DNA of 64,000 nt from Candidatus Sumerlaeota bacterium. GTDB taxonomy: Bacteria > Sumerlaeota > Sumerlaeia > SLMS01 > JAHLLQ01. The stretch is taken from NCBI GenBank assembly GCA_030156535.1, contig JASGMJ010000022.1, forward strand, positions 9,987 to 73,986, in the 5' to 3' direction. Of this stretch, positions 678 through 49,788 are shown one piece after another; within the stretch, counting starts at the first letter, position 1, and each line of letters begins with the position of its first letter. The notes under the pieces were generated by a model that worked only from the letters and a program-made list of their open reading frames with translations, had not been told where the DNA came from and ran no database searches. The position numbers and the translations under genes were made by a program.

Positions 678-1619
678 TTAATCCTTGGGAGAGAGAACCT
701 TGAAGTTGATGAAGGCAACGACGATGGCAATGCCGAGGAGGACAAAACTGATCGCCGCGGCTTCGCCGTACATCGATTCGTTGAAGACCTTGAAGAGGTG
801 GTAGCCGCTGATGCGGCCGCTTTGCAGCGTCGTGTCGAGCACGCGGACGCTGGTGCCGCCGGTGTCATCGGTCAGCGCGTAGATCTCGGCAAACGCGTTG
901 AGCGAGCCCACGAGCCCGGTGATCGAGAGGAACAGGATCGTGGGCTTGAGCATCGGGATCGTGATGTGGACGAGCTTCTGCCAGGGGTTGGCGCCATCGA
1001 CGTCGGCGGCCTCGAAGATCGAGGAGGAGATGTTGTTCAGGCTCGTCAGAAACAGGATCATGCCGAAGCCGGCGTTCTTGAGCACCATGACGAGCGCGAT
1101 GGCGGGCAGCACGAGCCACGGGTTGTTCAGCACCCCGGAATCCGCGAGCCCGTGGACCCCCGCCCAGTGCAGGAGCACGGAGAACAGGCCACCCTTGGGG
1201 TTGTAGATCAGCAGCCAGATCACGCCGACGACGTAGATGTCGAACACGTTGGGGAGGAAGAAGCCGCTGCGCAGGAGGGCGAAGCCGCGCCGCTTGCGGT
1301 TGAGCATCAGCGCCAGGGCCAGCGACATCGCGATGCCGGGCGCGATCATCAGCAGCGCATAGACCATCGTCAGGAAGATCGACCAGAGGAACACGGGGTC
1401 CTGGAAGATGCGCACATAGTTGCCGAGGCCGACGAACTCCATCGTGCCAAACAAGTCGTAGAAGTCCGAGTAGATCGTGACGCGGTACAGGCTGATGAAA
1501 AGACTGTAGAAGAGCGGGTAGCCGATGAAGACGACAAAGACGGCCATGAAGGGCAGCAGGAACGGTGCGGCCTCAAGGTCCTGACGAATCGAAATATGCT
1601 CGCGATGCTTGCGCGCCAT
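678..1619 (-). CDS. Carbohydrate ABC transporter permease (MalF/UgpA-type)
   Basis: 313-aa ORF with multiple hydrophobic TM segments. EAA-loop motif SIFEAADVDGANPWQKLVHITIPMLKP. Tightly packed between a GH13 gene and the second permease. Confidence 0.9.
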   Translation of the reverse strand: MARKHREHISIRQDLEAAPFLLPFMAVFVVFIGYPLFYSLFISLYRVTIYSDFYDLFGTMEFVGLGNYVRIFQDPVFLWSIFLTMVYALLMIAPGIAMSLALALMLNRKRRGFALLRSGFFLPNVFDIYVVGVIWLLIYNPKGGLFSVLLHWAGVHGLADSGVLNNPWLVLPAIALVMVLKNAGFGMILFLTSLNNISSSIFEAADVDGANPWQKLVHITIPMLKPTILFLSITGLVGSLNAFAEIYALTDDTGGTSVRVLDTTLQSGRISGYHLFKVFNESMYGEAAAISFVLLGIAIVVAFINFKVLSPKD

Positions 1620-1640: not shown

Positions 1641-4154
1641 CTACTCTACCTCGATGACCGCTCCACCAATCGGCGGCAGGGTCACGGACGATCTTGTGAA
1701 GTCGGTGGACGGCTGACTTGTGCCTGGTGTGGCATGAAGCAGCCGGAACTTCCGGGCCCTCGTCGGGATTTCCACCGTCTGCTCCTTCGTGCTGTTGTTC
1801 AGCACCACCAGCAGGGCGCGGCTCTTGTCGGCCGGGTCGTGCCGCCAGTAGCCGAACACGTCCTTGTCGTCGTCCACGATGGCGGTGCGGTAATCGCCCC
1901 GGCGCAGCAACGGCTCGCGCTGGCGCAGGTGGAAGAGCGCACGGAACTCCTCGCGCAGATCCTTGTCCACCCGGTAGTCCGGGTTGTCGAACGGCTCCAT
2001 GTCGTCCCACCACATGGGCATGCGGCACATCGGGTCGTCGGCGCCGTACATGCCCACCTCGGTGCCGTACCAGATCATGGGGGCGCCGATGTAGGTTGCC
2101 TGGAAGAGTGCCATGAGGCGGAGTCGGCGGTAGGCTTCCTCGGGGGGACGGGCGTCGTTGTACGCGGCGCCGTCTTCGTCCTGGCGCCGGTTGGCGCCGT
2201 CGTAGGGGAGATCGGGATTCGCGATGCGCGAGACCCAGCGATCGGTGTCGTGGCTGTCGAACAGGTTTTGCAGAACATAGGTATGGTTGCGCGGATAGCG
2301 GATGCGCAGACGGGCGAGCCGGCGGTCGAATTCGCTCGCCGTGATCTTCTCGCGGTCGTTGGCGAACCAGGGGAACGCGGCCTTGGGGAGTTGGTAGTTC
2401 ATCACGGCGTCGAACGTCTGGCCGTCGAGCCATTCCTCCGCCGGATCCCAGATCTCGCCGGTGATGTAGGCCTCGGGGTTGATCGAGCGCACGTGCGCGC
2501 ACCACTCCACCCAGAATCCCATCGGCACGTCCATGGGGACGTCGAGGCGCCAGCCATCGATGCCGTCGGAGGGATCGCCGTCGCCATTGGGGTCCATCCA
2601 GCGGTGCGTCACGGCGAAGATGTGGGCCTTGGCGGAGTCGCTGGCCAGCCCGTCGGGGGATTTGGCGAACTCGGGGAGCCCGTCGAATCCCGCCCAGCCC
2701 CGGTAGACGAACGGGTCCCAGCTCACGACGTTGAACCAGTCGGCGTAGCGCGATTCCTTGCCGTTCTCGCGGACGTCCAGGAATGCGGGATGGTCGTCGC
2801 CCACGTGGTTCCACACGCCGTCGAAGATGATGCGCATGTCGCGGGCGTGCACTTCGCGGATAAGTTCCAGCAGCATGCGGTCGGACGCGTTGAACTTCCA
2901 CGTCGTGGGATCGAGCAGATCCTCGCCGTCCTTGACCGCTGCGTACGACCCGGCGACGCCGTAGCCGTCGTCGGCGTGAACGTAGGTGCGCGCGTTGTAT
3001 TTGTGCGAATTGTGCGAGACGAACACGGGGTTGAGGTAGATGGCCGTGACGCCGAGTTCCTTGAGGTAGGTCAGCTTGTCGATCAGGCCGCGAAAGTCCC
3101 CGCCGTAGAGGCGGTCGTACATCGACCACTTCCAGAACGTCCAGCCATCGGTGCGCTCCCACGGGTACTCGGTGTACCAGTCGCTGCGCCACGGATGGGT
3201 GCGTCCCTTGGTGCGGGGCTCGCCGGTGAACTCGGGGTTGTTGGCCGTGTCCCCGTCGCGAAAGCGATCGACCATGATTTGGTACCAAATGGCGTCGCGG
3301 GCCCATTCGGGGGGCTGTGGGGCGCGGGGGGCATTCACTCTCGGATAGAGGTCCGGGTGCTTGTGCTCCGGTGTCTCGAAGGAGGCGTCGCCATCGCGCA
3401 GCTCGAAGTGGTAGGACATCATTGCCGTGGAGGGGCGCAGGTGGTACTCGAAGTAGTCGAACAGTTCGTCCGCCGCCGCGAGTTCCATTCTGTAGCGGCC
3501 GGACTGGCCGGGGCCCTTCATCACGAACGACACGCTTTCGACGTCGTTGGCCAGCGCCCGCACGCGAACGATGGCGTCGTCCGTCCCGATGCGGTCGTAG
3601 TACAGGTAGGCATCGGGGTCGTGCTTTACGGCGCGCGATTCGATGACACCGTCGCCCCGCTTGGGAGTGACATCGTGCAGGAAGGCCACGACGCCCAGAC
3701 GCAGGAGCGAGTTGCCGCTGCCGCCTTCCTCGCGCAGTGGGTTCAGCGGGTCGGACTCCCAGATGTCGGGCGCAGCGACGAACTTGTAGGCGTACTCGCC
3801 GCCGGCGAGACGCGCGGTGACGGAGTAGACCCCGTCCGCGTCCGGGCCGGAGAGGGGAAGCTCGGCGCGGTTCCAGCTATTGAACGTTCCGGCGACAGCG
3901 GGATCCTTGACGGGGGCGTCCGGTTTCCAACGGAACGTCACCAGATAATCGTCGTCGCCGATCTCCCAGACGTCGAGATGCTCGGGGTGGGGGAATTCGA
4001 CGGGACGGCGGGTGAAAGTCTCGACGCCGGGAACGGGACCAGCCAGCGCGGACGAATGGAATGCCCCGCCGATAAAAATTAACCCACTCGCTCCTGCAAG
4101 CAGGATTCCCTTTTTCAAAACATCGGCCGAATGAGTAAAAAGTCCTGAAAACAT
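1641..4154 (-). CDS. Exported GH13 alpha-amylase-family enzyme (neopullulanase/cyclomaltodextrinase-like) with N-terminal CBM48-like module
   Basis: GH13 conserved regions IFDGVWNHVG (I), GIDGWRLDVPMDV (II), YITGEIWD (III), LFDSHDTDR (IV). N-terminal VAGTFNSWNRAELPL...GEYAYKFVAAPDIWESDPLNP. The ORF runs to 4226, but the ATG at 4154 (MFSGLF...) directly precedes a signal-peptide-like stretch ending ...AFHSSALA. Confidence 0.9.
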   Translation of the reverse strand: MFSGLFTHSADVLKKGILLAGASGLIFIGGAFHSSALAGPVPGVETFTRRPVEFPHPEHLDVWEIGDDDYLVTFRWKPDAPVKDPAVAGTFNSWNRAELPLSGPDADGVYSVTARLAGGEYAYKFVAAPDIWESDPLNPLREEGGSGNSLLRLGVVAFLHDVTPKRGDGVIESRAVKHDPDAYLYYDRIGTDDAIVRVRALANDVESVSFVMKGPGQSGRYRMELAAADELFDYFEYHLRPSTAMMSYHFELRDGDASFETPEHKHPDLYPRVNAPRAPQPPEWARDAIWYQIMVDRFRDGDTANNPEFTGEPRTKGRTHPWRSDWYTEYPWERTDGWTFWKWSMYDRLYGGDFRGLIDKLTYLKELGVTAIYLNPVFVSHNSHKYNARTYVHADDGYGVAGSYAAVKDGEDLLDPTTWKFNASDRMLLELIREVHARDMRIIFDGVWNHVGDDHPAFLDVRENGKESRYADWFNVVSWDPFVYRGWAGFDGLPEFAKSPDGLASDSAKAHIFAVTHRWMDPNGDGDPSDGIDGWRLDVPMDVPMGFWVEWCAHVRSINPEAYITGEIWDPAEEWLDGQTFDAVMNYQLPKAAFPWFANDREKITASEFDRRLARLRIRYPRNHTYVLQNLFDSHDTDRWVSRIANPDLPYDGANRRQDEDGAAYNDARPPEEAYRRLRLMALFQATYIGAPMIWYGTEVGMYGADDPMCRMPMWWDDMEPFDNPDYRVDKDLREEFRALFHLRQREPLLRRGDYRTAIVDDDKDVFGYWRHDPADKSRALLVVLNNSTKEQTVEIPTRARKFRLLHATPGTSQPSTDFTRSSVTLPPIGGAVIEVE

Positions 4155-4457
4155 TGGTCCCTCATTGCCGGGTGGCGGTCTGCGAACAGGACGGGAAGGA
4201 TGGCTCATGCGGCCCACGGTGCCCAAAATCCGCCGCTGCCCCGTTGTGGCTCAAACGTTGCCTGCTTGACGAGCAACGCCCTTTGCTCCCCAATCCGCCG
4301 TGCCTAGGGCAACCATAACGCGGTGCTTGTGGATGTTGTTGTTGCTTCTTGTTAGGAAACTTTTATCGCTCGCCGTATATGACCTTCGCGTTTCCCGGGC
4401 AGAAAAGACAACGGTAATGGGCCCGTGCGGGCCGTCAATCGCATGGAGGGTTGCAAG

Positions 4458-6932
4458 ATGGCTAAAAGGATCGGAACAATTTTTATCGGAGCAGGGGCAC
4501 TCCTTCTGGCGGCGGGTTGCACGGCCAGGAATCCGCACGCACTGGCGCGGATCGGGGAGCACGAGACCGAACGCGTCTGGAAGGTGTCGAAAACGCCGGA
4601 ACCCCTTGGCGCGTTGACGATGATCCCCGGCGACGAGCGGCGGATCGGTCTGCGCGGGGCGGTTGCAGGGGAGGAAGTGCGGGTGCAATCAGCCAGCTAT
4701 GCCGCGGGCTCGGCGGAAATCCTTTCACTTTCATTTGTGCCCGGCGACGAAGAAATTACGGTTCGTGCAGTACCGGGAAAGGGTGGCGAGGGAGTCCTGA
4801 TTTTGAAAGCGATTACGTCCTCCGGCGAGCACGCTGAGCTTGCCGTCCCGTACAAGGCCGCGTTCCACCCCATCGTCACCTTCACCTATCGCCCGCCCGC
4901 AGGCGCCAGCCCCCAGCACGTCTTCGTCGCCGGAGCCTTCAACGGTTGGAGCAGCGCGCGTCATGAACTGCTCGACAGCGGCAACGGCGTGTACACGCTC
5001 GACCTTCCGGTTCCGCCGGGCAACTGGCCGTACAAGTTCGTCGTCGATGGCGAATGGATGGCCGATCCCGCGAATCCAAAGAGGGAGGCAGGCGGGCACG
5101 GCAACTCACTTCTCGACGTGGAGGGCACCTCGGCTGATGTCTTGACGTTCTCGCTGCTCTCGTCGGCGATGCCGGGCTCGGGCCCGCAGGGCGCGATCGC
5201 GCTGGCTTCCGGCTTCGACGAACCATTGGATCCCGCACGCGTTCATCTTGTCGTGAACAACGTGCTGGCCCCGCGTCAGTGGTGGAGCCTGGACGCGGCG
5301 GGGCAGACGGTGCGTCTGGCCATTCCGCCGGATCAGTGGCTCGACGAAAACTTTATCGTGCTGTTGGCGAGCGACACGGCCGGGCGTACGGGCATCTTTC
5401 AGTCGCGCGCCGACCTGCCGGGTGCACCGCGCTCGCCCCGCGACGAGGTCATTTACTTTGCCATGACCGACCGGTTCCTCGACGGCGATCCGTCGAACAA
5501 TCCCGTGCACACCGAGACGGAGGAAGAACTGCATCCGCTCGCACGCTATCATGGTGGCGACTGGCAGGGCATCACCACGAAGATCGACGAGGGCTACTTC
5601 GACAAGCTCGGCGTCACGTCGATCTGGCTCTCGCCCGCCAATCGCAACACCGACCGCATCGAGCAGGACGCGCTGCCTCCGCATCGCCGTTTCTCTTCCT
5701 ACCACGCTTACTGGCCCACGTCGCTGGACGAAACGAATCCCCCGTTCGGCACGGCACGCGAACTCGCCACCCTGGTGGACAACGCGCACGAGCACGAGAT
5801 CGCGATCCTGCTCGACTACGTTGCCAACCACGTTCACGAGACGCATCCCCTTGTCGCCGAGCACCCCGACTGGGTCACCGACATGCACACGCCCGACGGA
5901 CGCCTGAACATCCGCCTCTTCGACGAGTACCCGTTCACCACGTGGTTCGACAATTTCCTGCCGACGCTGGAATACCACGACAATCCCGAGCTCGTGCAGA
6001 CGATGGTGAAGAACGCGGCGTACTGGCTGGACAAAACGGGTGCCGACGGCTTTCGCCTCGACGCGGTGAAGCACGTCGATCCGGCGTACTGGACGGCGTT
6101 GTCGGAGGAGTTGTACGAGCGCTACACGCTCGGCCGTGGCGAGAACATCTACACGGTGGGCGAGACGATTTCCGACCGCTCGACGATCAACAAGTTCGTG
6201 GGGCCGGGCCTGCTGACGGGGCAGTTCGACTTCCCGCTGCTCTTCGCTCTTCAGGGGCCGCTGGGGCGCGGCGATGGGTCGTTCGCCGACGCGGCCGAGG
6301 CGGTTCTCGCCTCACAGGAAGAGTACCCCGCCGCTGGCGTGATGAGTCCGCTGCTGGGCAACCACGACGTGGTGCGCTTCATGGCGCTGGTCGATGGTGA
6401 CATGCCGCCGGGGGTGGACGAAAAGGAAGTGGGTTTCACGAACCCGCCCCGCGTGGATCGAGCTGATTCGCACGCCCGGATGCGCCTGGCGTTTGCGTTT
6501 CTCTTCTCGGTGCCCGGGCCGCCGACGTTGTACTATGGCGACGAGATCGGCATGACGGGCGCACACGATCCTGACAACCGGCGCTCGATGCGCTGGCAGG
6601 ATTGGAGCAGCGAGGAGACGGCGACGTTCGAAGCCGTCTCGCAACTGGCCCATGCACGCGGCGCGTCCGTGGCACTGCGCCGTGGACGCTATGAAATCGT
6701 GGCAGCGGGCGAGGACCACCTGGTGGCCGCGCGCGTGAGCCCGGAGGAAACGGTGCTGATCGCGATGAAGGCAGGCTCCGGAGCGGTGACGGCCGAACTG
6801 CCTGCGGCGTGGGGAAGCCCCGCGGCCCTGGAGCCCCTCGTGGATGGCGGCTTGCGGGCGTCCCTGGCGGGGGAGAGCGTGGAGTTCGCCGGGCCCTCGC
6901 AGGCCTACGGATACTGGATCGTGCGGTGGTAG
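4458..6932 (+). CDS. GH13 alpha-amylase lipoprotein with CBM48-like module
   Basis: GH13 regions LLDYVANHVH, GADGFRLDAVKHV, YTVGETISD, LLGNHDVVRF. Lipobox MAKRIGTIFIGAGALLLAAGC. VAGAFNGWSSARHELLDSGNGVYTLDLPVPPGNWPYKFVVDGEWMADPANP. GGAGGG lies about 10 nt upstream of the ATG at 4458; the track ORF starts at 4425. Confidence 0.9.
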   Translation: MAKRIGTIFIGAGALLLAAGCTARNPHALARIGEHETERVWKVSKTPEPLGALTMIPGDERRIGLRGAVAGEEVRVQSASYAAGSAEILSLSFVPGDEEITVRAVPGKGGEGVLILKAITSSGEHAELAVPYKAAFHPIVTFTYRPPAGASPQHVFVAGAFNGWSSARHELLDSGNGVYTLDLPVPPGNWPYKFVVDGEWMADPANPKREAGGHGNSLLDVEGTSADVLTFSLLSSAMPGSGPQGAIALASGFDEPLDPARVHLVVNNVLAPRQWWSLDAAGQTVRLAIPPDQWLDENFIVLLASDTAGRTGIFQSRADLPGAPRSPRDEVIYFAMTDRFLDGDPSNNPVHTETEEELHPLARYHGGDWQGITTKIDEGYFDKLGVTSIWLSPANRNTDRIEQDALPPHRRFSSYHAYWPTSLDETNPPFGTARELATLVDNAHEHEIAILLDYVANHVHETHPLVAEHPDWVTDMHTPDGRLNIRLFDEYPFTTWFDNFLPTLEYHDNPELVQTMVKNAAYWLDKTGADGFRLDAVKHVDPAYWTALSEELYERYTLGRGENIYTVGETISDRSTINKFVGPGLLTGQFDFPLLFALQGPLGRGDGSFADAAEAVLASQEEYPAAGVMSPLLGNHDVVRFMALVDGDMPPGVDEKEVGFTNPPRVDRADSHARMRLAFAFLFSVPGPPTLYYGDEIGMTGAHDPDNRRSMRWQDWSSEETATFEAVSQLAHARGASVALRRGRYEIVAAGEDHLVAARVSPEETVLIAMKAGSGAVTAELPAAWGSPAALEPLVDGGLRASLAGESVEFAGPSQAYGYWIVRW

Positions 6933-7357
6933 GGGCGTGACTGGCGGCGGGTATAAAACTTTAGTGGAGCCCGCCGCCGCAGCGCCGTGGCCAGGGTGTC
7001 AGCGAAGGTGGATGGAGCGGGTAAAGCGGAGCGAGAACAGCCGGCAGGGCAAGGCGTGGGGTTGTAACCGCTTTCCATGGCCCATTATCTGTCCGTCTCA
7101 TAAAAAAATAACGCCCCGTTCATTTATAACATCCTTTAAAACTTCCGCGAACGGCTTGACAGGGCACATCGAATGAAATGATGTTCTCCATGTCCACTTT
7201 AGAACGCGGTGCCCATTCCAGCGCACGCCTCCAGGTGGAAGATGTATCAGGGCGGATGTATCGCGGGCACAGTGGCCAATAGGGGCCTGCCGGGAAACGC
7301 CACCCAAGCGGATTGCACCCCGTGGAATCCACCATCCCAGAGGAGGTATCTCCAAGC

Positions 7358-8056
7358 ATGACGCAGTCTCGCATCAAAACCATTCGAACCGGGCAGGGCT
7401 TCACCCTGATCGAGCTCCTGATCGTGGTGGCCATCATCGCCATCCTGGCGGCGATCGCCGTGCCCAACTTCCTGGAGGCGCAGGTTCGCTCCAAGGTTTC
7501 CCGCTCGCTCTCCGATATGCGCACGATCCGCACGGCCCTCGAATCGTACGCCGTCGACAACAACAAATACCCGGAGACGGACTTGGGCCGCGCCGCCTAC
7601 AACGCGGGGTATCGCACGATCGACCGCCTCACCACGCCGATCTCCTACATCACCAGCATTCCGAAGTCCCCCTTCATCGAGAAGTTCGGTGCCAGTAACG
7701 CCACCGACCCCAAGATGGCAACGCTGCGCAATCACGTGCTTTATGTCCGCAAGGACCGCGCACGCTCGACGGACAGCGAGAACCCTACGGGCTCCGGCGT
7801 TGACGCAAACTACTACAGTGATCGCATCGCTTATCTTCAGCCCCCTCTGAGTGCCTCCATCCCCGTGCTCAACGGCATTGGCACAGCAGGCCAGTGGCTG
7901 ATGAAGAGCAACGGCCCCAACAACTTCGACGACCGTGAGGCCCCTCCCGTTGGCTTTGGGACAAGCGGCCGCGTCTACGACCCGACGAACGGTACTGCCT
8001 CTGACGGCGACATTGTCGTCTTCAGCGACCTTTCCGGCACGGGCAAGAACATCTAA
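7358..8056 (+). CDS. Prepilin-type N-terminal cleavage/methylation domain protein (type II secretion / type IV pilin-like pseudopilin)
   Basis: MTQSRIKTIRTGQG|FTLIELLIVVAIIAILAAIAVPNFLEAQVRSKVSR has class III signal features (G-1, F+1, E+5). GAGGAGG RBS lies upstream of the ATG at 7358. C-terminal YDPTNGTASDGDIV motif is shared with two paralogs in the window. Confidence 0.85.
   Translation: MTQSRIKTIRTGQGFTLIELLIVVAIIAILAAIAVPNFLEAQVRSKVSRSLSDMRTIRTALESYAVDNNKYPETDLGRAAYNAGYRTIDRLTTPISYITSIPKSPFIEKFGASNATDPKMATLRNHVLYVRKDRARSTDSENPTGSGVDANYYSDRIAYLQPPLSASIPVLNGIGTAGQWLMKSNGPNNFDDREAPPVGFGTSGRVYDPTNGTASDGDIVVFSDLSGTGKNI
7400..7504 (+). repeat. Conserved 105-nt pseudopilin N-terminal coding segment, copy A
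   Basis: Encodes FTLIELLIVVAIIAILAAIAVPNFLEAQVRSKVSR. The same 35 aa (one substitution in copy B) recur at 47986..48090 and 49030..49134. Nucleotide differences are mostly at third codon positions. Confidence 0.85.
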
Positions 8057-8178
8057 GGGATGGAGACACGGGGGCTGGTGTCTCTCCGGCCTCATCATCG
8101 TTGTTCGCACCATCCGAAACCCTGAACAATTCGACCACGAACGGTACCAACTCAACACACCCTCTGGAGGGTAATACC

Positions 8179-9810
8179 ATGCAGCAGCAATCGTTTCGCA
8201 CCGCTCTCGCGATTGGCCTGATTGCCGGAGCCGGCAGCCTGGCCTTCGCACAGGAAGGCAACACGACGTTCTTCACCGGCGAGCACGTTGTCGCGGGTGG
8301 AAATCTCCCGGCTTTTAGCAGCTTTGATCCCAGCGTCAATGACGCCACGAGCCGCATGTACAACGACGGCACGACTGCCGGCGACGTCAGCGCGTCCGAC
8401 CACATCTGGACCTACTCCGCCACTGGCATCACCCCTTCGGGCGACCCCCTTGCGGTTGAAACTTGGAAGATGGCGACTTGGGATGGCGTGGATTCGGGAA
8501 CCGCCTGGTCGCATGAGAGTCCGTCGGGTGGCGACGCTCTGTATCCCACCAACGAAGCGGCCGTGGATTTCTTCTGGGTGGACCCGGACGGTTCGATGGG
8601 CGACGGCTACCTGCCGGATAACAACTTTGTCTACACCTCGCCGAACAACATTGCGGCGCGGATGCAGGCAGCGAGCAGTTTTGCCATTTTCGGCAACTTC
8701 GGCACGGAGCTCGGTGCCACTGGTGACTGGGGAGACTCTGGCACCCATCTGTCGCTGACTCGCAATGCCAGCACGCAGGAGTGGGAGGTCACCCTCTCCG
8801 GCTGGCAGAACATCGGCAACAAGGAATTCAAGGCCGTAATGAACGGCGACTGGGGGCCCGGAAACGAAATCGGCACCAACGGTTTTGGTGGCGGCAACAT
8901 CAGCTTCTTCCTGCTCAACAAGGCCGACGTGGTGACCTTCAAGGTGCGCGAAGCCGACGGCCGCTACAAGTTTGAAGGCCTGACGCCGCTCCCCAGCACG
9001 GATGGCGTTTATGCCCTCGGACCGTGGACGACGACGCCCGAGACCGACAGCATGATGACATCGGTCGCAGATGGCTTTGAACTGACCGTGACCGTTCCGA
9101 CGGCCGGCCAGCAGACCCTGACAGTGTTCGAGATCTCCGGTGGTAATCTTGTCAAGCTGTGGCCGGGACAGGGCGCGCATCCCTTCAAGACCACGACCGA
9201 CAATCAGGAGATTCGCGTCAACCTGCACACCGCCTCCATGGCGGACGGTGCCTTCCCCGATTCCGACTTCATTTACACGGACCCGGCTTCTCGCATCGAC
9301 TTCACCGCTGCAGCCAACGCCCGTATCCAGATCGTCGGGCCGCTCAGCATGTGGGGCCTGCGCTATGGCGGCGACTTCGACAACCCCGCCACCGATGGCG
9401 TTGGCAGCAATGACCCCGTCGCCACACAGGTCGGCTCCGATGCGTTCCTGTATCGCTGGGACGCCCCGACGACCAACCACGGCACTCCTGCACCGGGCCT
9501 GACCAAAGAGTACAAGGCCGTTGCCGTTACTGACGACATCGCCATCTCGGCCTCGAACGCCTGGGCCATTCAGCTTGGTGGTGTCCATGACCTGACCGGC
9601 GAGGAACGCAAGTGCGGCCTCTCGCTGCTTGGCGACAACAAGAACCCGAGCTACGACTTCCTGGATGCGACGGACTACTCGTTCTTCGTCGACACGGCTA
9701 CCGGCCGCGTGAAGGTCCAGCTCGCCACGGATCCTGTCCCGACACTTCGTCCCGCCCGTGCGAACGACGCCGTCGGCGCCTCCAATGTTTCCGAGTGGAC
9801 CGCCTACTAA
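8179..9810 (+). CDS. Secreted protein with two internally repeated beta-rich modules (putative carbohydrate-binding), function unknown
   Basis: Signal peptide MQQQSFRTALAIGLIAGAGSLAFAQ, with GGAGGG RBS before the ATG at 8179. Internal duplication: DGYLPDNNFVYTSPNNIAARMQAASSFAIFGNF...EFKAVMNGDWGPGNEIG vs DGAFPDSDFIYTDPASRIDFTAAANARIQIVGPL...EYKAVAVTDD...AWAIQLGG. It lies 122 nt downstream of the pseudopilin on the same strand and is followed by a strong terminator. Confidence 0.75.
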   Translation: MQQQSFRTALAIGLIAGAGSLAFAQEGNTTFFTGEHVVAGGNLPAFSSFDPSVNDATSRMYNDGTTAGDVSASDHIWTYSATGITPSGDPLAVETWKMATWDGVDSGTAWSHESPSGGDALYPTNEAAVDFFWVDPDGSMGDGYLPDNNFVYTSPNNIAARMQAASSFAIFGNFGTELGATGDWGDSGTHLSLTRNASTQEWEVTLSGWQNIGNKEFKAVMNGDWGPGNEIGTNGFGGGNISFFLLNKADVVTFKVREADGRYKFEGLTPLPSTDGVYALGPWTTTPETDSMMTSVADGFELTVTVPTAGQQTLTVFEISGGNLVKLWPGQGAHPFKTTTDNQEIRVNLHTASMADGAFPDSDFIYTDPASRIDFTAAANARIQIVGPLSMWGLRYGGDFDNPATDGVGSNDPVATQVGSDAFLYRWDAPTTNHGTPAPGLTKEYKAVAVTDDIAISASNAWAIQLGGVHDLTGEERKCGLSLLGDNKNPSYDFLDATDYSFFVDTATGRVKVQLATDPVPTLRPARANDAVGASNVSEWTAY

Positions 9811-9858
9811 GGCCCCGCTCTTCCAAACGCTTCACGCGAACCCCTACCACTCCACGAG

Positions 9859-9892
9859 CCGCCCCCGCCTGCAAGCGGGGGCGGTTTCGTTT
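9859..9892 (+). terminator. Rho-independent terminator after the pseudopilin / secreted-protein operon
   Basis: Perfect 10-bp GC stem CCGCCCCCGC / GCGGGGGCGG with 6-nt loop, followed by TTTCGTTT. Confidence 0.7.
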
Positions 9893-10085
9893 GAAGACCG
9901 CGCACCTTGCCGACAATCACCCACTTCCACATTCGTCGAGGCTGGGACGCCTCCGAGTTCAACTTCCGGCGACGATTCATCAAGACTGCTCTACGACAAG
10001 GCTCCGTGCCCTGTCGCATTGAGAACATCCCGCTGCGCCTGTATGATCCACGGAAGCAAATTTATTGGACGGGTTTCTTTCTTTT

Positions 10086-10171: not shown

Positions 10172-12172
10172 ATGAGTCCCAAGCGTCCGAAAACCGCGCA
10201 AGCCGCGCGCAAGTCCCTTTCTCCCCGCCAGCGTCTGTTGCTTGTCGCCTTCGGGTTGGGCGTGGCGTTGGGGTGCCTGCTCCTCGTGGAGATCACCCTG
10301 CGCGCCATGGGCTATGCGCGCCCGGACCCGTTCTTCGCCGAGGGACCGGACGTGCCCGGGTATGGAACGGTGCACGTGACGTCGGAGAATTGGGCGCGGC
10401 GGTTCTTCTTTCAGCGCGTCGATGGCAAGCGCCTGCCCGTGGGGAGTTCGGTGCCCCAGTACTACTTCACCCCGAAGCCGCGCGAGGCGTTGCGGGTGGC
10501 GGTGATCGGCGAATCAACGGTGCAGGGGTTCCCCTATCCGGCGAATCTTTCCATCAGCCAATACGTGCAGGCGCTCCTGCAGGACCTTGCCCCCGAGCGC
10601 GACGTGCAGGTGTTCAACTTCGGTTTCACGGCTGTGGCATCCTATCCGGTGTCGCGCGTCGTGGAGGAGACCGCCGTGCAAACGGAGTGCGACGCCGTTG
10701 TGATCCTCGTCGGGCACAACGAGTTCTTCGGTGCGTATGGAGTTGCTTCGAGTCAGTACGCCGGCAACTCGCGCCGGTTGCTCGCGCTTCACGAGGCGTA
10801 CAACGATCTGCGCTTCGTCAAGCTGCTGCGGGAGGGCATCGGGAAACTGGGGACGGAGTCAGATGCCGGGCAGGAAGCAGAAGGGGGCTTGATCAACTAC
10901 ATGGCGGCGGACAGCGGCATCGGGCCGGATGACGCGCGGCGCAGGACGGCGGCCACGTTGCTCGAAGCGAACGTGCGCTGGTCGATTCGTCACTGCCGCG
11001 ATGCCGGAATTCCGGTGCTTGTGGGCACGATGCCGAGCAACCTGTCGGGCTTTGCGCCGGTGGGGCGTTCGGTTGCCGCCCTGCCCGGGACGGACGAGGC
11101 ATTGAAGGAAGCGATGCAGATCGAGGAAGGGCCCGGGCGCCTGGCCGCTCTGGAGGCACTCGCCGAGAAGGACGCGAATCACGCGCTGCTGTGGTTTCGT
11201 CTGGGCGAGGCGCGCGAGAAGGCGGAAGACAACGAGGGCGCGCGGGTGGCGTTCGTGCGGGCCCTCGATCTGGACGGAATGCCTTGGCGCGCGCCGACAC
11301 TGTCGAACGAGGCGCTGCGCCGTGCGGCGGCGGAAGAGGGAGCCGCGCTCGCCGATTGCGTGGAATCGTTTCAGCAGGCAACGAAGTACGCCGCGCCCGG
11401 GTGGGACTTCTTCGACGACCACGTGCATCCGTCGCTGCGGGGCCGGATGCTTTATGCGCGCACGCTTGTCGATGGGCTGATTCCGCTGCTCGGGCTTGAG
11501 GGGCGTGAAGGGAGCCTGCGCGCGGACGAAGAGTACCAGCGCGAGCTCGGCGGCCAGCATCTTCTCTCCAGCCGCGAGGCGTACAACCGTCTCGGTTCGC
11601 TCTTCGAGGGGCCGCCGATGTCGGTCAACAACGAACAAGTGTACGGGAACTTCGTGAGGATCGTGAATGACCTGGATGCGCGGATGTTGCCGGAGGAAGC
11701 GAATGCGTGGCAGATCCACGGCAAGCTGGTGGAGGAAGGCGTTCCCGGTCCGCCGCCGGCGCTTGTGGCGGGCACGCTGATGATGCAGGCGGGGAAGTTG
11801 CGTCCGGCGATTTATCAGATGGGGATTGTGCGGCAGTCGCGGACGCTGTTCTCGATGCCGTGGGTGCAGGCGGCTTGGACAGAGGGGCATTGCCGCCGTC
11901 TGCTGGGCGAGCCGCTGGGGCCTGCCCTGGAGCGCGACCTCGACCGTGCGCTGATGGTGCTGGATGTGCTTCCACAACTCGAATCCGGGCCCGAGGCGGA
12001 GTTGCACAAGGCCCGTGGGCAGATTTACTGGGTGCAGGAGCGCTACGACGACGCCATCGCCGAGTTGGAGAAGGTCCTGGCCGTTGCGGAAAGCGACGAG
12101 GCACGCAAGGACGCGCGCACGTCGATCGAGGCCATCAAGGCGGAAAAGCAGGCCCGTATGGCGCAGCAGTAA
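10172..12172 (+). CDS. Membrane-anchored SGNH/GDSL-type hydrolase with inserted and C-terminal TPR-like repeats
   Basis: N-terminal TM LLLVAFGLGVALGCLLLVEI. SGNH blocks: VAVIGESTVQG (block I, Ser in GES), VILVGHNEFFG (block III, GxN), FFDDHVHPSLRG (block V, DxxH). TPR-like LWFRLGEAREKAEDNEGARVAFVRALDLD and KARGQIYWVQERYDDAIAELEKVLAV. Confidence 0.7.
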   Translation: MSPKRPKTAQAARKSLSPRQRLLLVAFGLGVALGCLLLVEITLRAMGYARPDPFFAEGPDVPGYGTVHVTSENWARRFFFQRVDGKRLPVGSSVPQYYFTPKPREALRVAVIGESTVQGFPYPANLSISQYVQALLQDLAPERDVQVFNFGFTAVASYPVSRVVEETAVQTECDAVVILVGHNEFFGAYGVASSQYAGNSRRLLALHEAYNDLRFVKLLREGIGKLGTESDAGQEAEGGLINYMAADSGIGPDDARRRTAATLLEANVRWSIRHCRDAGIPVLVGTMPSNLSGFAPVGRSVAALPGTDEALKEAMQIEEGPGRLAALEALAEKDANHALLWFRLGEAREKAEDNEGARVAFVRALDLDGMPWRAPTLSNEALRRAAAEEGAALADCVESFQQATKYAAPGWDFFDDHVHPSLRGRMLYARTLVDGLIPLLGLEGREGSLRADEEYQRELGGQHLLSSREAYNRLGSLFEGPPMSVNNEQVYGNFVRIVNDLDARMLPEEANAWQIHGKLVEEGVPGPPPALVAGTLMMQAGKLRPAIYQMGIVRQSRTLFSMPWVQAAWTEGHCRRLLGEPLGPALERDLDRALMVLDVLPQLESGPEAELHKARGQIYWVQERYDDAIAELEKVLAVAESDEARKDARTSIEAIKAEKQARMAQQ

Positions 12173-12184: not shown

Positions 12185-13732
12185 CTACATCACGCGCTTG
12201 AACATCGAGTAGTTCGTCGCGTGGCCGCGGTCGACGGAACGGAACATTCGCACGCCCTTGGGCGGCAGCGTCACCGTCAACGTGCCCGCGTGCAGAGTGG
12301 TGCGCTCGCCGGTGAGGAGGCACTCCATCGGCGCCGCGTCCATCCAGAGCGAGTAGCGCACCGGGATCAACTCCGTCACCGTTTCGCTCGTCGAGGGATT
12401 CGCAACGATGAGCACCGTGTCGATGGCGTGCTCGGAAGTGCGCAGAAAGCACACGAGGCGTTCGGCGTCGAGCACACGGCAGTCGCCGTGAATGAGCGCC
12501 GGGTTCTTCCGGCGCAGGCGCAGCAGGCGGCGGATGAAGGCGTACTCGGGGTTGTCGTCGTTCACGAGATCCCATCGCATCGCCCCACGGCAGAAGGGAT
12601 CGTGCCCGCCCTCCATGCCGAGTTCAGAGCCGTAGTAGATCGTGGGGCAGCCGGGGAGCGTGAACTGCAGCACGCGCAAGAGCTCGCGCATGGCGATATC
12701 CGGCACGAGGTGGGGCAGGCGCGCCGTGTCGTGATTGTCGAGGACGAGGTGGCTGCGCAGAAGGCCGTCGTAGTCGCATTCGTCGAGCGCGCGCTGGAGG
12801 GCACGGTTGAACGCGGCGGGGGAGAACCTGCCGGCGGCGAGTGCGAGCATCAGTTCGCGCCAGTGCATGAGCAGGATGCCGTCGAGCACGGTGAGCCAGT
12901 CCTGCGGGTAGTTCCAACATTCGCCAACGACCCAGGAGCCTGGTTTGGCCTCGTGGGCGCAGTTGGTGAGGTCGCGCAGAATGGCGGGGCCGAGGTCGGG
13001 TGCGACGTCCAGGCGCCAGCCGTCGATGCCCTCGTTGCTCAGATACTGGCGCACGATGCCGTCCTCCGCGGCGTAGAGCCAGTCGCGGACGGCCGGGTTC
13101 TCCAGATTGAGCTCCGGCAGATTGGGGACGTTGCGCCATCCGCGCCATCCATTGCGGAACTGCTCTCCGATGTAAAAGAACTCTGCTCCGTCCCCGGTTT
13201 CCAGTGCCTTCTCGAAACAGCGCGCGTGCCGTCCCATGTGATTGAACACGCCATCGAGCATCAGGTACATGCCGCGTTCGTGCAGACTGGTGGCGAGTTG
13301 CTTGAGTTCGGCGTTGGTGCCGTACTGCGGGTCCACGCGGCAGTAGTCGCCGGTGTCGTACTTGTGATTGGTCCACGCCTCGAAGATGGGATTCAGATAA
13401 ACCCATTGAACGCCAAGTTGCTGGAGGTAATCGAGCTTGGCGCGGAGCGATTCGAGGTCGCCGCCCCAGAACTCCAACTGTCCCTCGACGATTCCCTCGG
13501 GTTCGATGCGGTGGCCGCGCTGGGGCGTGTCGCTCCACTGTTTCAGACGGCGCGGCGGGGCGTAGTGCTCGCGTTTGGCATCGAGGCGGCTGGAGGGCGC
13601 AAAGCGATCCACGATGATCTGGTAGACGACGGCACCGATGCGCGGGTCGTGGCGGCGTTCTTCGATGCGCCGATGGCGCTGTTGCTCGATGGCGCTGAAC
13701 AGGGCGGGGTTTTCGGTTTGCTCGTGCGTCAT
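12185..13732 (-). CDS. Cytoplasmic GH13 alpha-glucosidase / maltodextrin-hydrolysing enzyme
   Basis: GH13 regions MLDGVFNHMG, GIDGWRLDVAPDL, WVVGECWN, VLDNHDTARL. No signal peptide. The ATG at 13732 (MTHEQTENPALF...) avoids an implausible P/S/T-rich extension of the track ORF (to 14014) that would overlap the upstream gene. Confidence 0.85.
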   Translation of the reverse strand: MTHEQTENPALFSAIEQQRHRRIEERRHDPRIGAVVYQIIVDRFAPSSRLDAKREHYAPPRRLKQWSDTPQRGHRIEPEGIVEGQLEFWGGDLESLRAKLDYLQQLGVQWVYLNPIFEAWTNHKYDTGDYCRVDPQYGTNAELKQLATSLHERGMYLMLDGVFNHMGRHARCFEKALETGDGAEFFYIGEQFRNGWRGWRNVPNLPELNLENPAVRDWLYAAEDGIVRQYLSNEGIDGWRLDVAPDLGPAILRDLTNCAHEAKPGSWVVGECWNYPQDWLTVLDGILLMHWRELMLALAAGRFSPAAFNRALQRALDECDYDGLLRSHLVLDNHDTARLPHLVPDIAMRELLRVLQFTLPGCPTIYYGSELGMEGGHDPFCRGAMRWDLVNDDNPEYAFIRRLLRLRRKNPALIHGDCRVLDAERLVCFLRTSEHAIDTVLIVANPSTSETVTELIPVRYSLWMDAAPMECLLTGERTTLHAGTLTVTLPPKGVRMFRSVDRGHATNYSMFKRVM

Positions 13733-13823
13733 GTGTCGTTGCTCCGGCGGCTGGCTGTAAAGAAAGCCGGGGAGGGTGAGCTCCCCGGCCGGTGCTGGTG
13801 TTTGTTGTGTTCGTTCGCGGCCA

Positions 13824-16800
13824 TCAGGGGCAGGCGCTGATGATCTGAAGGGCGTGGTTGAAGATGCGTTGTGCATCGGCGGGAGTGACACTGCCGTCCC
13901 CGTCGCCGGCATCGACGCATCCATCCGCGTCGTCTGGTGCGATGTCGGCGGCGTCGGAGGAAACACCCGTGCCGCACGTGGCGAACAGGAAGCATTCGAA
14001 CGCGGCCTGCGCATCGGCGGGGGTCACGACTCCGTCCCCATTGGCGTCTCCGGGGACGACGGGTGCCGAGCCGATGTTGGCGGCGCCCGGCGTGGGCACG
14101 GAGGCGTCGGCGCCGCTCGTCGGATCCCAGTCCGCCGCGCTGTCGGTGTCGGTGCTTGCCGAGTCGCGTGCCAGCGAATGGTTGCTTGTTCCACTGGCCG
14201 GGCCTGCAACGTCGCCCACCAGGGTCGTGCCGTCCGGTGCCTTGCGAATCACTCCACTGGTCTCTTCGTTGGCGCTGTTACGCCAGTCCACATAGTCGAT
14301 GCCGATTCCCCACGGATCGACGAGACCGACGGACGCGCCGCGCGTCTCGTCCCACGGGATGTTGAAGCCCGTGTGGAGAACTGTCGCCGTATCGGCTGGG
14401 GGAGTGGTGCCGCCGTCGTCCGACACGAGCAGATAGCCCCCCGGGGCGATCGTCGTTCCATCGGGGAAGACATAATCGCGCGGAACGATTTCCTTGTCGT
14501 TCATGCGCAGCGCCCAGCCGGAAAGATCGACGGGCGAAGCGCCCGGGTTGTAAAGCTCAACCCAGTCCGGCACGCCGGCGAACACTTCGTTGATGAGGAC
14601 GGTGGGGCTGGTGCCAAAGGCAGCGACCGCTTCGATGGTCTGCGTGCCGACGTAGGAATCGCTCGCGTTTTCGGGGAGCGTGTTCGGGCTGGCGCCGCCG
14701 GTGTCGGGCGCCGTGACGGCGGCGAGGCGGATCTTGCGCGGGTCGGGATTTCCGAGCGCCTCCAGCGGGAGGACGATCTCGAACGTGTTCGGCCCCGCGA
14801 TGGTTGTTCCCGGTGCGGCGGAGAAACCCGCCGTTGCCGCATCGTAGCCCGCGGAGAACGAACTGTTGAACTCGAAGTTGTCAAACGCTCCCGGCAAACC
14901 GTCGCCGCCGACGGTGTAGCCGTATGCCGTGCCCGGCGATGTCATGCCGAAAACGGCGTCGAAGCCCACGCCGGCGGTGACGAGCGCGGGCGCGAGGGTG
15001 AAGTCGGCACGGCTGATGTCGCCGCGCAGGCCATCGGATTCGTCCGTCAGTTCCACGCCCATTTCCGTCGTGCCGCCGCCGGAACCGGCATTCACGTCGA
15101 TGTAGAGAATCGAGACGTTGTCCAGGCTGTCCTCGTTGGCGCCGAACATGTCGCCGCGCAGAGCAATGCCGAGCACCCCGTCGCGAACTGCCGCGTGCAA
15201 CTCCGTCAACGTGCCATCGGCGCCGTAGTCGGCGGGGAGTGCGCTGCCGGTGGAGCCGTCGGCGGCGGAGGCCGCGAGGACGGGCAACGCGAGGAACTCC
15301 GTGGCGTCGCCGTCGATGGCGAAGGGAGGAAGCGTCTCCGGCTGGCCGAGTCCATCAACGGTCAGGCTCGAGTTCGCTTCCGACGTGAAGCCCGTGCCGT
15401 TGGGGCCGGTGCTGGCGCGGACGCGCACGGTGTAGGTGCCGTTCTGCAGGCTCAGCGCCCCGGCGGGAATCGTGTCGGCCAGATCGAAGGAGCCGACGGG
15501 CTTCGTCACCGAGAACGCTCCGGCAGGCGGATCGGTAAGCGTCGCGATCAACTGCGAATCGGCGGGGCCATCCAGGAAAATCTGGGCAAACCCCGGGGCC
15601 GAGCCGAACGTGCCCGCGACGACGATCTCCGTGGGGTTGGTGACGGTCTCCCCCGGAGGGGCGGGATTCGTGATCGTGATCGTGGGGCCCGAGGCGTCAT
15701 CGGCGACCGTGACGTTGGCAATCGCTTCGGAGGGCGGCTCGCCTCCGGCGGTCAGCTGGGCGACGGCGCGGAACGTGTGCGGGCCGGGGCCGTAGTTGCG
15801 CCAGAGGAAGCGGAACTCGTCGTAGTCGTCGCCGCCGAGGTTCTGATCGTTCTGCACGAGACGGCCAACCGGGGGGAGCAGCGAGGCGTCATACGGCTCG
15901 GCGCTGATCGCGGCGCCGTCATCCACCTGCAGCATCACGGTGTAGTCGCCGTCGTTGAACGAGATCGGGCCGTCGGCTGCGGACTCCGTGTTCACGCGGA
16001 CCACGATTTCGTTCGCGTACTCGGCGGTATCGATGCTCGCGGGGAAGGACTCGAAACTGACGCTGTCCGAGGAAGGATCGGTGTCCACGCCAATCAGAAT
16101 CTCGGGTGTTGCGACGTCCACACCGATGTTGTCGAAGCGCGTGATCGAGTAATTGCCGGATTCCTCGAAGGCGACGACGGTGATTTCGGTTGTCGTGCCG
16201 GTGCCCGCAAAGCCGCTGAGCACGCGGCGCCATTCGAGGCGGTCGTGCTGGCGCGCCTTGTTGCTGTCGTTGACGAGCGCGAGAACCTGCTCATCGGTGG
16301 CATCGGCGGGAACATCGAGCAGAATGTGAACGGCGTTCGCCGTGTGGTCGGACTGCACGGCGGCTTCGTAGTCGGCCGAGGTGATGTCGCCGCTTCCGGT
16401 GCGGGGCGGGAAGAGGAGTTCGGCGGTTGGCGGAACGCGATCGAGATAAACCACGGCGCGTTCGTTGTCGTAAATGGCGGGGGTATCGGCGGGGCGCTCG
16501 AGGAACGCCACGGTCTCGATGTACGTGTAGCCTTCCTTCAGGTTCGTGGCGTCGATGCTCGCCGTGTAGGTGCCGTCGTTGACGTTGGGGAAGTTCTCGA
16601 AGCCGGCGAACTCGCCGTGGGCGTTGCGGGTGCCGTCGCCATCAACATCGACTTCGCCGAAGTTGACCTTGATGAGCGCGGCGTCGCTGACCGGCGAGTC
16701 GGCCACGTCGAGTTGAACCTCGATAGTGTCGGCCGTGACGACTTGCAGCGTCGTCAGGCGGCGCTGGGCCTGCGAGCGGCCGTCGTCGGGATCGGGGCCG

Positions 16801-18701: not shown

Positions 18702-19865
18702 ATGTTCCGCCGCTCCACGCCGATCCGTGCTCTGGCCCTGGCGCTCGCCGCCTCCACAGGCCCCGCCGTTCCGGTTGAAATCGCTCTTCACCAGGAGACC
18801 CTGCCGGGGCAGAGCGTCTTCGTCTCCGGCCCGCTGCCCCTGCTGGGCGGCGGCGATGTGCGGCGCGCCGTCAAGCTCTCGCCCCACCAGTATCCGGTCT
18901 GGTCGATCGTCATCGACCTGCCGCCGGGGACGAGCTTCCAGCCGAAGTTTTATCTGCGCGACGACGCCCCCGCCCGCCTCGCGGATGCGGGAAATGCCAC
19001 GCCGATTCCCACGACGCACACGATCACCACGCCGGCGGCGGAGGAACCCGGGGGCCTCCAGCGCGATCCCGTCCCCGGGCCCGGTGCGTCGATTCCGCGC
19101 CGCGAGTCCTTCACGTGGACCCCGTCGGCGCCGCTCTTCAAGCCGCGCGCGATCACCGTACTGCTGCCGCGCGGGTACGACGACACCACCACGCGCCGCT
19201 ACCCCGTGCTCTATGCCGAGGACGGGCAGAATGTTTTCTCGCCCGGCGGGCCGTTCGGATCGTGGGATCTCGATCTGATCGCGACGGATCTGATCCGCAG
19301 AGGCGAAATCCCCGAGATCATCATCGTGTCCATCGACAATGGCGGGGTCGACCGCATCGCCGAGTACATTCCCGAGTGGATCGTCTACAAGGATGTGCCC
19401 ACGCGCGGCGGAGAGTACCTGCGGCTGCTGATCGGGGAAGTGATGCCGGAGATCGACCGGCGCTATCGCACGAAGCGCGGGCCCGCAAACACGGCACACC
19501 TGGGGAGCTCGCTCGGCGGCGTGATTGGCTTCGAGGCCGCCAACGAGCACGCCGACGTGTTCGGCGCCGTCGTCGCGATGTCGCCAAGTTTCTGGCTCAA
19601 CCGCCCCGGGTTCGTCGAGCGCGCCGGGCGCCCGCCATCCACCCGCGCGCGGCTCTACATCGACTCGGGCACCGAGGGGCCGAACAGCGACGCCTATGCC
19701 GACACGATGGCCGTGCGCGATGCGCTCATCGAGAGCGGTCACGTGTTCGGCGCACCGTTCCTGCACACCGTCGGCCTCGGGGACGGGCACAACGAAGCGG
19801 CCTGGCGCGGGCGCCTGCCCGGCGCGCTGCGCTGGCTGTACGCGCCAACCACCACAACGGAGTGA
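18702..19865 (+). CDS. CBM20 (starch-binding) domain fused to an esterase-D/enterochelin-esterase-type alpha/beta hydrolase
   Basis: N-terminus VPVEIALHQETLPGQSVFVSGPLPLLGGGDVRRAVKLSPHQYPVWSIVIDLPPGTSFQPKFYLRDD fits the CBM20 pattern. Then ITVLLPRGYDDTTTRRYPVLYAEDGQNVF and nucleophile elbow LGSSLGG, typical of the putative-esterase family. Confidence 0.8.
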   Translation: MFRRSTPIRALALALAASTGPAVPVEIALHQETLPGQSVFVSGPLPLLGGGDVRRAVKLSPHQYPVWSIVIDLPPGTSFQPKFYLRDDAPARLADAGNATPIPTTHTITTPAAEEPGGLQRDPVPGPGASIPRRESFTWTPSAPLFKPRAITVLLPRGYDDTTTRRYPVLYAEDGQNVFSPGGPFGSWDLDLIATDLIRRGEIPEIIIVSIDNGGVDRIAEYIPEWIVYKDVPTRGGEYLRLLIGEVMPEIDRRYRTKRGPANTAHLGSSLGGVIGFEAANEHADVFGAVVAMSPSFWLNRPGFVERAGRPPSTRARLYIDSGTEGPNSDAYADTMAVRDALIESGHVFGAPFLHTVGLGDGHNEAAWRGRLPGALRWLYAPTTTTE

Positions 19866-42561: not shown

Positions 42562-42574
42562 GAGGAACCATGCC

Positions 42575-43930
<1,356 letters not shown>

Positions 43931-49701: not shown

Positions 49702-49788
49702 CTGATTCCGCCAAGCGAGACGCTGAAAACCGCGGACACCCCCGGCGTGCCGGGGGTGTCCTGCTGTCTTGGTGCTGAAGGCTTTTGT

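Follow-up and report, generated by a model that had tools for sequence, protein, structure and literature searches.

A GspG-like pseudopilin gene and a gene for a divergent X25-type protein form a conserved pair: a candidate module for pilin-dependent export or display of an alpha-glucan binder

The 64,000-nt stretch analysed here (contig JASGMJ010000022.1 of Candidatus Sumerlaeota bacterium, positions 9,987 to 73,986 of the forward strand; hereafter the window) contains, on its plus strand, a pair of genes that encode a GspG-like prepilin, or pseudopilin (7358..8056), and a secreted four-module protein with two predicted X25 starch-binding modules (8179..9810). In this text, we use the term pilin to refer to the first product and binder to refer to the second. 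The genes are separated by an intergenic gap of 122 nt, are closed by an intrinsic terminator, and look co-transcribed.

The pilin gene runs from ATG 7358 to TAA 8056 (232 aa), and its ribosome-binding site (RBS), GAGGAGG, lies 10 nt upstream of the start codon. The class III (prepilin) leader, read from the sequence, comprises M1-G14 (7358..7399), with predicted cleavage between G14 and F15 and with Glu19 at the +5 position. This is the canonical prepilin type; leader and cleavage site read MTQSRIKTIRTGQG/FTLIE, or MTQSRIKTIRTGQG/FTLIELLIVVAIIAILAAIAVPNF from the N-terminus onward, and the cleavage context GQG/FTLIELLIVVAIIAILAAIAVP has both the G/F-x-x-x-E leader and the hydrophobic N-terminal helix of GspG. 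The protein matches Pfam N_methyl (E 9.7e-8), Pfam T2SSG (25.3 bits, cutoff 21) and TIGR02532 IV_pilin_GFxxxE (33.5 bits, above cutoff), so that the prepilin gene with strong RBS and class III signal that a preliminary description had noticed is indeed present. The match to the GspG equivalog TIGR01710 (NCBIfam) is 60.1 bits, under the cutoff of 88.85, and the NCBIfam PilA N-terminal match is likewise under its equivalog cutoff. When a profile of the globular domain is used without the helix, the only PDB matches are major pseudopilins of type II secretion systems (T2SS; EpsG 3gn9, GspG 3fu1, 4lw9 and others; E 9e-6 to 1e-3), in an alignment that covers only the first ~70 of the ~180 globular residues. 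The remaining ~100 residues have no assigned relative and end in a conserved YDPTNGTxSxGDI motif; an acidic GD-rich motif at the C-terminus may recall the calcium site of GspG. The first gene product is thus best described, as judged from its sequence, as a GspG-like pseudopilin, yet one that is no GspG equivalog and is encoded outside a gsp operon.

The binder gene begins at ATG 8179, downstream of a GGAGGG RBS, and ends at TAA 9810. Its product has a predicted Sec-type signal peptide of 24 aa (8179..8250; AFA/QE, read from the sequence as MQQQSFRTALAIGLIAGAGSLAFA/QEG) with no lipobox Cys, and similar hydrophobic N-terminal leaders are present in all 28 members of the binder family. The signal peptide and the intergenic distance had been described correctly, while the length of 544 aa had not, since the stop codon was counted; the product is 543 aa. 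The terminator that ends the pair (9859..9892, plus strand) had been called strong, and it consists of a 10-bp GC stem (CCGCCCCCGC/GCGGGGGCGG) followed by a T-run (TTTCGTTT); the segment 9850-9900 folds with -30.1 kcal/mol (z -3.7 versus shuffles). A promoter-like site (10019-10047) precedes the next gene. We also considered a stem-loop at 8060-8090, just after the pilin stop codon, as an attenuator that would yield more pilin than binder, but dropped this idea because its energy is no better than that of shuffles (z 0.40) and because the gap between the two genes ranges between 25 and 145 nt in the relatives.

Beyond the signal peptide, the binder is composed of four modules, all encoded on the plus strand. 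These are an N-terminal beta-sandwich, N1 (residues 26-137; 8254..8589), which is distantly X25-like; repeat module 1 (residues 138-275; 8590..9003), consisting of a DGxLPD lead-in and an X25 core that gives the Pfam PF22058 match (residues 169-258); an inter-repeat beta-sandwich, N2 (residues 276-351; 9004..9231); and repeat module 2 (residues 352-525; 9232..9753), a divergent X25 module with insertions, recognised by hhalign against module 1. The motifs quoted earlier for the two repeats are present (GDGYLPDNNFVYTSP and ADGAFPDSDFIYTDP; KEFKAV and KEYKAV). In a self-alignment, residues ~138-273 and ~352-522 match with z values of 5-7 relative to shuffles (0 of 200 shuffles as good), and at the level of the family hhalign relates module 1 to module 2 with 99.4% probability (E 4.5e-21), which bears out the duplication proposed in the preliminary description. 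N1 aligns with module 1 at 96.5% (E 7.8e-10), which suggests that residues 26-137 may be a further degenerate copy of the module; for N2 the relation to module 1 is weak (76%).

Close relatives of the binder are rare, amounting to four clusters among 5.8 billion proteins, and the one match in a GTDB species genome is from a Candidatus Sumerlaeia metagenome-assembled genome (MAG; 67% identity). A profile search of 1.84 billion representatives returned 185 matches, which are of two kinds. In the first are ~27 full-length relatives with lengths of 510-535 aa and, in addition, two forms of 960 aa that have extra Big_12 domains. The second is made up of many proteins in which the match is confined to profile positions ~165-255 and is often repeated, in 2-6 copies; they are genuine multi-X25 proteins, among them amylopullulanases that also have GH13, CBM48, PUD and CBM20 domains (E down to 1e-27). 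Locus L099 encodes a 967-aa variant of the X25 family (6001-8904) with a ~460-aa N-terminal extension containing Big_12 immunoglobulin-like domains; here the pilin gene is still upstream, and two GH13 genes and an ABC permease gene follow.

The preliminary description had likened the repeats to starch-binding beta-sandwiches and had proposed a search against carbohydrate-binding module (CBM) families, as well as a structure prediction with a fold search. At the level of homology and fold the likeness is upheld, and the module can be named. Pfam X25_BaPul_like (PF22058) is matched by 24 of the 28 full-length family members, with a best E of 8.2e-25. The AlphaFold2 (AF2) model of the binder, built with the 28-sequence alignment, is all-beta, with a mean predicted local distance difference test score (pLDDT) of 82.5 and a predicted TM-score of 0.75; the beta strands of N1 and those of N2 (residues 276-350) are at pLDDT ~90, and confidence is lower in the 390-410 loop. 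With five close homologs alone the pLDDT was 41 and the model unusable. In Foldseek searches of the PDB, the best match is 7rpy_A, the X25-2 domain of R. bromii Sca5 (E 1.6e-6, probability 1.00), followed by 2wan, the X25-containing B. acidopullulyticus pullulanase BaPul (probability 0.97), and, lower in the list, 8jn0, the N-terminal domain of amylase Amy703 (probability 0.96, TM 0.66 on target). The model is superposable on 7rpy_A and 2wan and has the X25 beta-sandwich fold. No X25 structure came up when the PDB sequences were searched with either the single binder protein or the profile of its family.

Several aromatic residues of the two repeats are highly conserved. Positions W184, W202 and W225 of module 1 are aromatic in 25-28 of the 28 members, and W392, F400, Y425 and W462 of module 2 in 22-28 of them, as read from the 28-sequence alignment; these are the positions expected for a glucan platform. 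In addition, each repeat is introduced by a D-G-x-x-P-D motif that precedes the Pfam X25 core (residues 141-146, 8599-8616; residues 355-360, 9241-9258), with D142, P146, D356 and P360 invariant in all 28 members. To our knowledge, this lead-in is not a feature of canonical X25 modules; it may form a metal site or belong to the binding cleft. From the family matches and the predicted fold, we take the duplicated module to be an X25 starch-binding beta-sandwich; as a starch binder, the protein would then be a new addition to the X25 group, and a highly divergent one. Modules of the X25 type are present in SusE/SusF, Sas20 and Sca5, and their ligands are maltooligosaccharides and starch (PMC9112005). 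From knowledge of this family, the binder is predicted to bind starch, glycogen or maltodextrin chains and is presumably non-enzymatic, with no catalytic function.

An orthologous pilin gene is located directly upstream of the binder gene, on the same strand and with gaps of 25-145 nt, in every relative context for which upstream sequence was available, 14 by the overall tally. These include the close relatives (L001, L002 and L005-L012) and also distant ones in which the X25 protein is only 23-29% identical or comparably divergent (L014, L016, L017, L018, L019, L020, L099, L100 and L101). The X25-linked pilins are 51-61% identical to the window pilin over their full length and 44-56% identical in the globular domain alone; with their X25 partners at 23-29%, the pilin is far more conserved than the binder. 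The check on co-occurrence that had been proposed for the gene pair is therefore positive in all relatives examined, down to 23% identity.

GH13 genes are nearby in L014, L016, L099 and L101. The genes called beside the pair in L017, L018 and L100 are of the housekeeping type (RecJ, PrmA; ArgRS, DnaA; ribosomal proteins), and no amylase gene was called in the retrieved flanks. From these neighbours we conclude that the pair is an autonomous module that moves as a unit, independent of amylase genes. The preliminary description had named the occurrence of the pair without amylolytic neighbours as grounds for refuting its reading, and such an arrangement is what these three loci show. We read their surroundings as autonomy of the module and do not count them against glucan binding, because these copies of the pair still match X25. 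Taken as a whole, the genomic comparisons, which are the sole source here, give strong support to a putative functional coupling of pilin and binder. Literature searches on the pairing of pilin and X25 protein, on pseudopilins encoded in polysaccharide loci and on pili of Sumerlaeota turned up no account of this module.

The C-terminus of the binder carries a conserved tail, ...SNVSEWTAY-COOH (9781..9807, plus strand), which is evident in the alignment and has a pLDDT below 50 in the model. Its consensus is [ST]-[AS]-V-x-[DE]-W-x-[LM]-[YF], with 0-2 residues between this motif and the C-terminus. The tryptophan, W540, is present in 27 of the 28 members and is the best-conserved aromatic position of the binder family. 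The same tail is found on an unrelated protein of the window with a Sec signal and a Laminin_G_3 domain (46610-47533, minus strand), whose gene is divergently adjacent to a second, frameshifted pilin gene (47968-48580, plus strand). This paralogous pilin has the same N-terminal helix; a frameshift occurs near 48150, and the C-terminal part, in the next frame, ends ...YDPSNGTISHGEIVTYGLG, so that the gene is either a pseudogene or the product of an assembly error. A third pilin paralog (49015-49701, plus strand; 228 aa) is intact, with little in common with the pilin of the pair beyond the helix; open reading frames (ORFs) on both strands downstream of it (49700-53450) have no Pfam or NCBIfam match.

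The association of tail and pilin extends beyond the window. Metagenome contigs were scanned with the pilin globular domain, and 80 loci were kept of >427 relatives. In nine of these (L019, L020, L023, L039, L051, L052, L055, L056 and L069), a tail-bearing ORF immediately adjoins the pilin gene on the same strand, and the products contain PD40 or DUF5122 beta-propellers, a Laminin_G_3 domain or a CBM9-like domain. Pilin-adjacent positions are occupied by 9 of 13 tail-bearing ORFs, versus 85 of 595 others (odds ratio 13.5, Fisher p 1.5e-5), in a crude count that takes all raw stop-to-stop ORFs of at least 150 aa rather than curated genes. Some of the pilin paralogs in these loci have no tail-bearing neighbour. 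Two known types of C-terminal signal were considered for the tail and rejected. An outer-membrane-protein beta-signal does not fit the periodicity (V -6, W -3, L/M -1, Y 0), and the chain here is one of soluble beta-sandwiches; a known sorting domain (such as PEP-CTERM, Por_Secre_tail or LPXTG) is likewise not seen, there being no transmembrane segment and no Pfam or NCBIfam match over the tail. The literature search found no published description of the tail, which, judging from its distribution, may be an undescribed sorting or docking tag.

The genes around the pair indicate that it is in a predicted GH13/ABC-transporter alpha-glucan locus. To its left are genes for an ABC permease (678-1619, minus strand), a GH13 enzyme with a CBM48-like module and an N-terminal hydrophobic segment (1641-4226, minus strand) and a GH13 lipoprotein (LAAGC; 4425-6932, plus strand). 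To its right are genes for a fusion of a GDSL-like hydrolase and TPR repeats that has a membrane anchor at its N-terminus (10172-12172, plus strand), a GH13 enzyme with no signal peptide seen, which we read as cytoplasmic (12185-14014, minus strand), a giant secreted GH13 protein of 1551 aa (13824-18479, minus strand) and a CBM20-esterase (18702-19865, plus strand). GH13 genes thus flank the pair on both sides, with one product a lipoprotein, one cytoplasmic and the others Sec-secreted, and the placement in a glucan locus given in the preliminary description is confirmed. The giant GH13 protein has a weak match to the GH13 catalytic domain, a lamin-tail domain and a weak C-terminal Dockerin_1 match (E 5e-4); it is conserved in relatives from Sumerlaeia (1549 aa in L001 and L002) and represents an unusual amylase architecture.

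The GDSL/TPR gene directly follows the pair in the window, as it does in L001, L002, L005, L007 and L016, and is elsewhere in the locus in L014. Its product might de-esterify modified glucans. We rejected it as a core member of the operon, given that the terminator and the promoter-like site lie between it and the pair and that it is absent in L017, L018, L099, L100 and L101. Farther away, ~34 kb from the pair, is the only filament ATPase gene of the window (44091-45839, plus strand), whose product is of the PilT/PilU family (TIGR01420, 388 bits), carries a ~200-aa C-terminal extension and adjoins a sigma-54 response regulator (42479-43930). As identified by this match, the ATPase shows that the organism has type IV filament machinery. 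Type IV pilus genes and GH13 enzymes have been reported in all Sumerlaeota MAGs (PMC8092238).

We consider that the two genes probably form a conserved module through which a non-catalytic alpha-glucan binder is exported or displayed in a pilin-dependent manner. In this scheme, the binder would be exported by Sec and would fold into its four beta-sandwich modules, of which two are clearly of the X25 type and have conserved aromatic residues as putative platforms, while the pilin would be processed by prepilin peptidase and inserted into a type IV-filament fibre similar to that of a T2SS or type IV pilus (T4P). The pilin would then carry the binder across, or hold it at, the outer surface, with docking most likely through the conserved flexible C-terminal tail of the binder. 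There the binder could capture starch, glycogen or maltodextrin chains for the surrounding lipoprotein and secreted GH13 enzymes and the ABC transporter, so that starch or glycogen would be concentrated for the GH13 enzymes at the surface. Its part would then resemble that of the X25 proteins SusE/F in Bacteroides and of Sas20/Sca5 in the R. bromii amylosome. The binder itself has no lipid anchor, dockerin or sortase signal. The preliminary description had suggested that the pilin presents the binder at the cell surface; the part of this idea that has the two proteins working together gains from the presence of the pilin gene upstream in every relative, while anchoring and surface presentation are, like the pilin-binder contact and the role of the tail, things that we infer.

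That the contact is inferred is one of several points that weigh against this proposal. Another concerns assembly genes: no gsp or pil assembly genes (GspD/E/F, PilB/C/Q) are beside the pair in the window, and genes for GspD/E/F or minor pseudopilins do not flank it in any relative locus either. The earlier statement that T2SS and T4P assembly genes are not adjacent therefore stands for the immediate neighbourhood, while the window elsewhere holds the PilT/PilU ATPase and the two pilin paralogs. Third, the tail is also found on a Sec-signal protein with NAGPA/Golvesin_C domains (59373-61193, plus strand) that has no pilin neighbour, and because of this the tail may address general machinery rather than the adjacent pilin. 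Fourth, the window binder alone scores 20.2 bits against PF22058 (E 6.5e-4), with a gathering cutoff of 27, so that its assignment to X25 leans on the evidence from the family and the fold. Finally, if all the relatives, which are mostly metagenomic, belong to one phylum, then inheritance rather than selection could account for part of the synteny, a reading against which the changes in the flanking genes speak.

The same findings can be arranged in other ways, of which the best is that the pseudopilin acts as a secretion adaptor, i.e., as a cargo-specific part of a pseudopilus of the T2SS type by which the folded X25 protein is pushed through an outer-membrane secretin, after which the binder would be released to the medium or onto starch granules. 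The resemblance of the pilin globular domain to T2SS major pseudopilins rather than to pilins of long fibres fits this well, as does the cargo, which has a Sec signal and is folded and multi-domain, like T2SS substrates. Docking of a terminal peptide on a pilin has a precedent in type IVb pilus systems (TcpF, CofJ), and the invariable pairing would be expected equally. We nevertheless give this explanation less weight than the main proposal, since other gsp genes are missing near the pair in every locus, cargo-specific major-type pseudopilins are not established for T2SS, and a binder that is released without an anchor would be less useful to the cell that produces it.

A second arrangement, which seems improbable to us, is a bindosome-like complex of the periplasm or envelope, in which the unpolymerised pilin is an inner-membrane stalk that holds the X25 protein, and maltodextrin is captured for the ABC transporter. 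ABC permease genes do flank the locus, no sequence feature demands passage of the outer membrane, and the PilT-family ATPase of the window weakly matches the bindosome ATPase BasE (NCBIfam, E 2e-8, far under cutoff). Here, however, the pilin signal is on a separate small protein and not on the binder, and no transporter gene was called in the retrieved flanks of L017, L018 and L100, yet the pair is present. Moreover, tandem X25 modules are known to bind polymeric or helical alpha-glucan at cell surfaces (PMC9112005). That there is no direct interaction at all, the pilin being one of many expanded pseudopilin paralogs and its adjacency a matter of inherited synteny or co-regulation, could be argued from the paralogs of the 64-kb window, at least three in number, whose N-terminal helices are nearly identical, the hundreds of metagenome relatives and the paralogs without a tail-bearing neighbour, but is very improbable, as the pair survives complete turnover of its flanks and divergence of the X25 protein to 23-29% identity, the pilins linked to X25 make up an orthologous group of their own, and tail-bearing genes are enriched beside pilin genes.

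The pair may also be one case of an undescribed and widespread display or secretion system, in which paralogous GspG-like pilins are each matched with a Sec-exported, non-catalytic binding protein. The cargo types would be X25, ConA-like lectin, beta-propeller and CBM9-like proteins, each with a C-terminal tag that docks on the pilin or on the filament machinery. We put this extension forward tentatively, as a possibility that we hold to be less probable than the proposal for the pair itself. If true, such systems would be modular "lectin-on-a-pilus" surface structures for the capture of polysaccharides, and the tail, if it is a sorting or docking tag, would help to predict the surface proteome of these organisms and would turn the occurrence of large expansions of pseudopilin paralogs in some phyla into a directly testable question.

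In the capture of insoluble alpha-glucan by gut and environmental bacteria, non-catalytic starch binders have a central part, and those known so far are attached either by lipid (Sus) or by cohesin-dockerin contacts and sortase (the amylosome). A binder that is always accompanied by its own pseudopilin points to a third, type IV filament-based route of attachment or export, in a poorly known and largely uncultivated lineage. What is new here is the obligatory cassette of one pilin and one binder, together with the shared C-terminal tail, neither of which was found described in the literature searched.

Among known systems, the closest in terms of the binder are Sas20 and Sca5 of the R. bromii amylosome (PDB 7RPY). 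Both there and in the window, secreted multi-module binders, presumably non-catalytic in the case of the window, with tandem X25 beta-sandwiches and known or putative aromatic platforms occur alongside GH13 enzymes, at a sequence similarity too low for detection by hidden Markov models against PDB sequences. The amylosome proteins are attached by dockerin/cohesin and sortase in a Gram-positive system, whereas the window binder has none of these (no Pfam match of the X25 protein to dockerin or cohesin), and it adds the N1 and N2 sandwiches, the DGxxPD lead-ins, the W-x-x-Y tail and the obligatory pilin partner. SusE and SusF of B. thetaiotaomicron are likewise repeated X25-type surface starch binders in a starch utilisation locus (PMC9112005), and the role that we propose for the binder would be analogous. 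They are, however, lipoproteins in a SusC/D-type locus; the window binder ends its signal peptide in AFA/QEG with no lipobox, no SusC/D match was obtained among the scanned neighbours of the pair, and SusE/SusF were not among the top 50 Foldseek matches of the binder. The SusE/F analogy drawn in the preliminary description therefore extends to the type of module, X25 being common to both, and not to the lipobox or the SusC/D locus.

For the pilin, the closest counterparts are the T2SS proteins GspG, EpsG and PulG, which share the class III leader and the conserved N-terminal helix and align with it over the first ~70 globular residues. The window pilin differs from them in its ~100 extra globular residues, its score below the TIGR01710 equivalog cutoff and its position outside a gsp operon, and also in having several paralogs, each beside a different cargo-like gene.

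For the proposed coupling of the two proteins, three further systems can be compared. V. cholerae TcpF and CofJ of enterotoxigenic Escherichia coli are Sec-exported proteins in which a short flexible terminal peptide binds a pilin, and they are exported by the filament machinery; there, an N-terminal peptide binds the minor pilin at the tip of a type IVb pilus, with a colonisation factor as the cargo, and the correspondence is one of analogy only. The tapirins of Caldicellulosiruptor and the cellulose-binding type IV pilins of Ruminococcus and Fibrobacter link type IV filament genes with non-catalytic adhesion to polysaccharides, but with beta-helix folds or with the pilin itself as the binder, with cellulose as the ligand, in Gram-positive hosts, and with a whole pilus operon rather than a single dedicated pilin. 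In the archaeal bindosome of Sulfolobus, sugar-binding proteins have class III signal peptides and pilin-type machinery serves in sugar capture; there the binder carries the pilin signal, whereas the window encodes a binder with a Sec signal and, separately, the pilin. We regard TcpF/CofJ, the tapirins and the bindosome as the nearest mechanistic precedents for the pair, by way of analogy.

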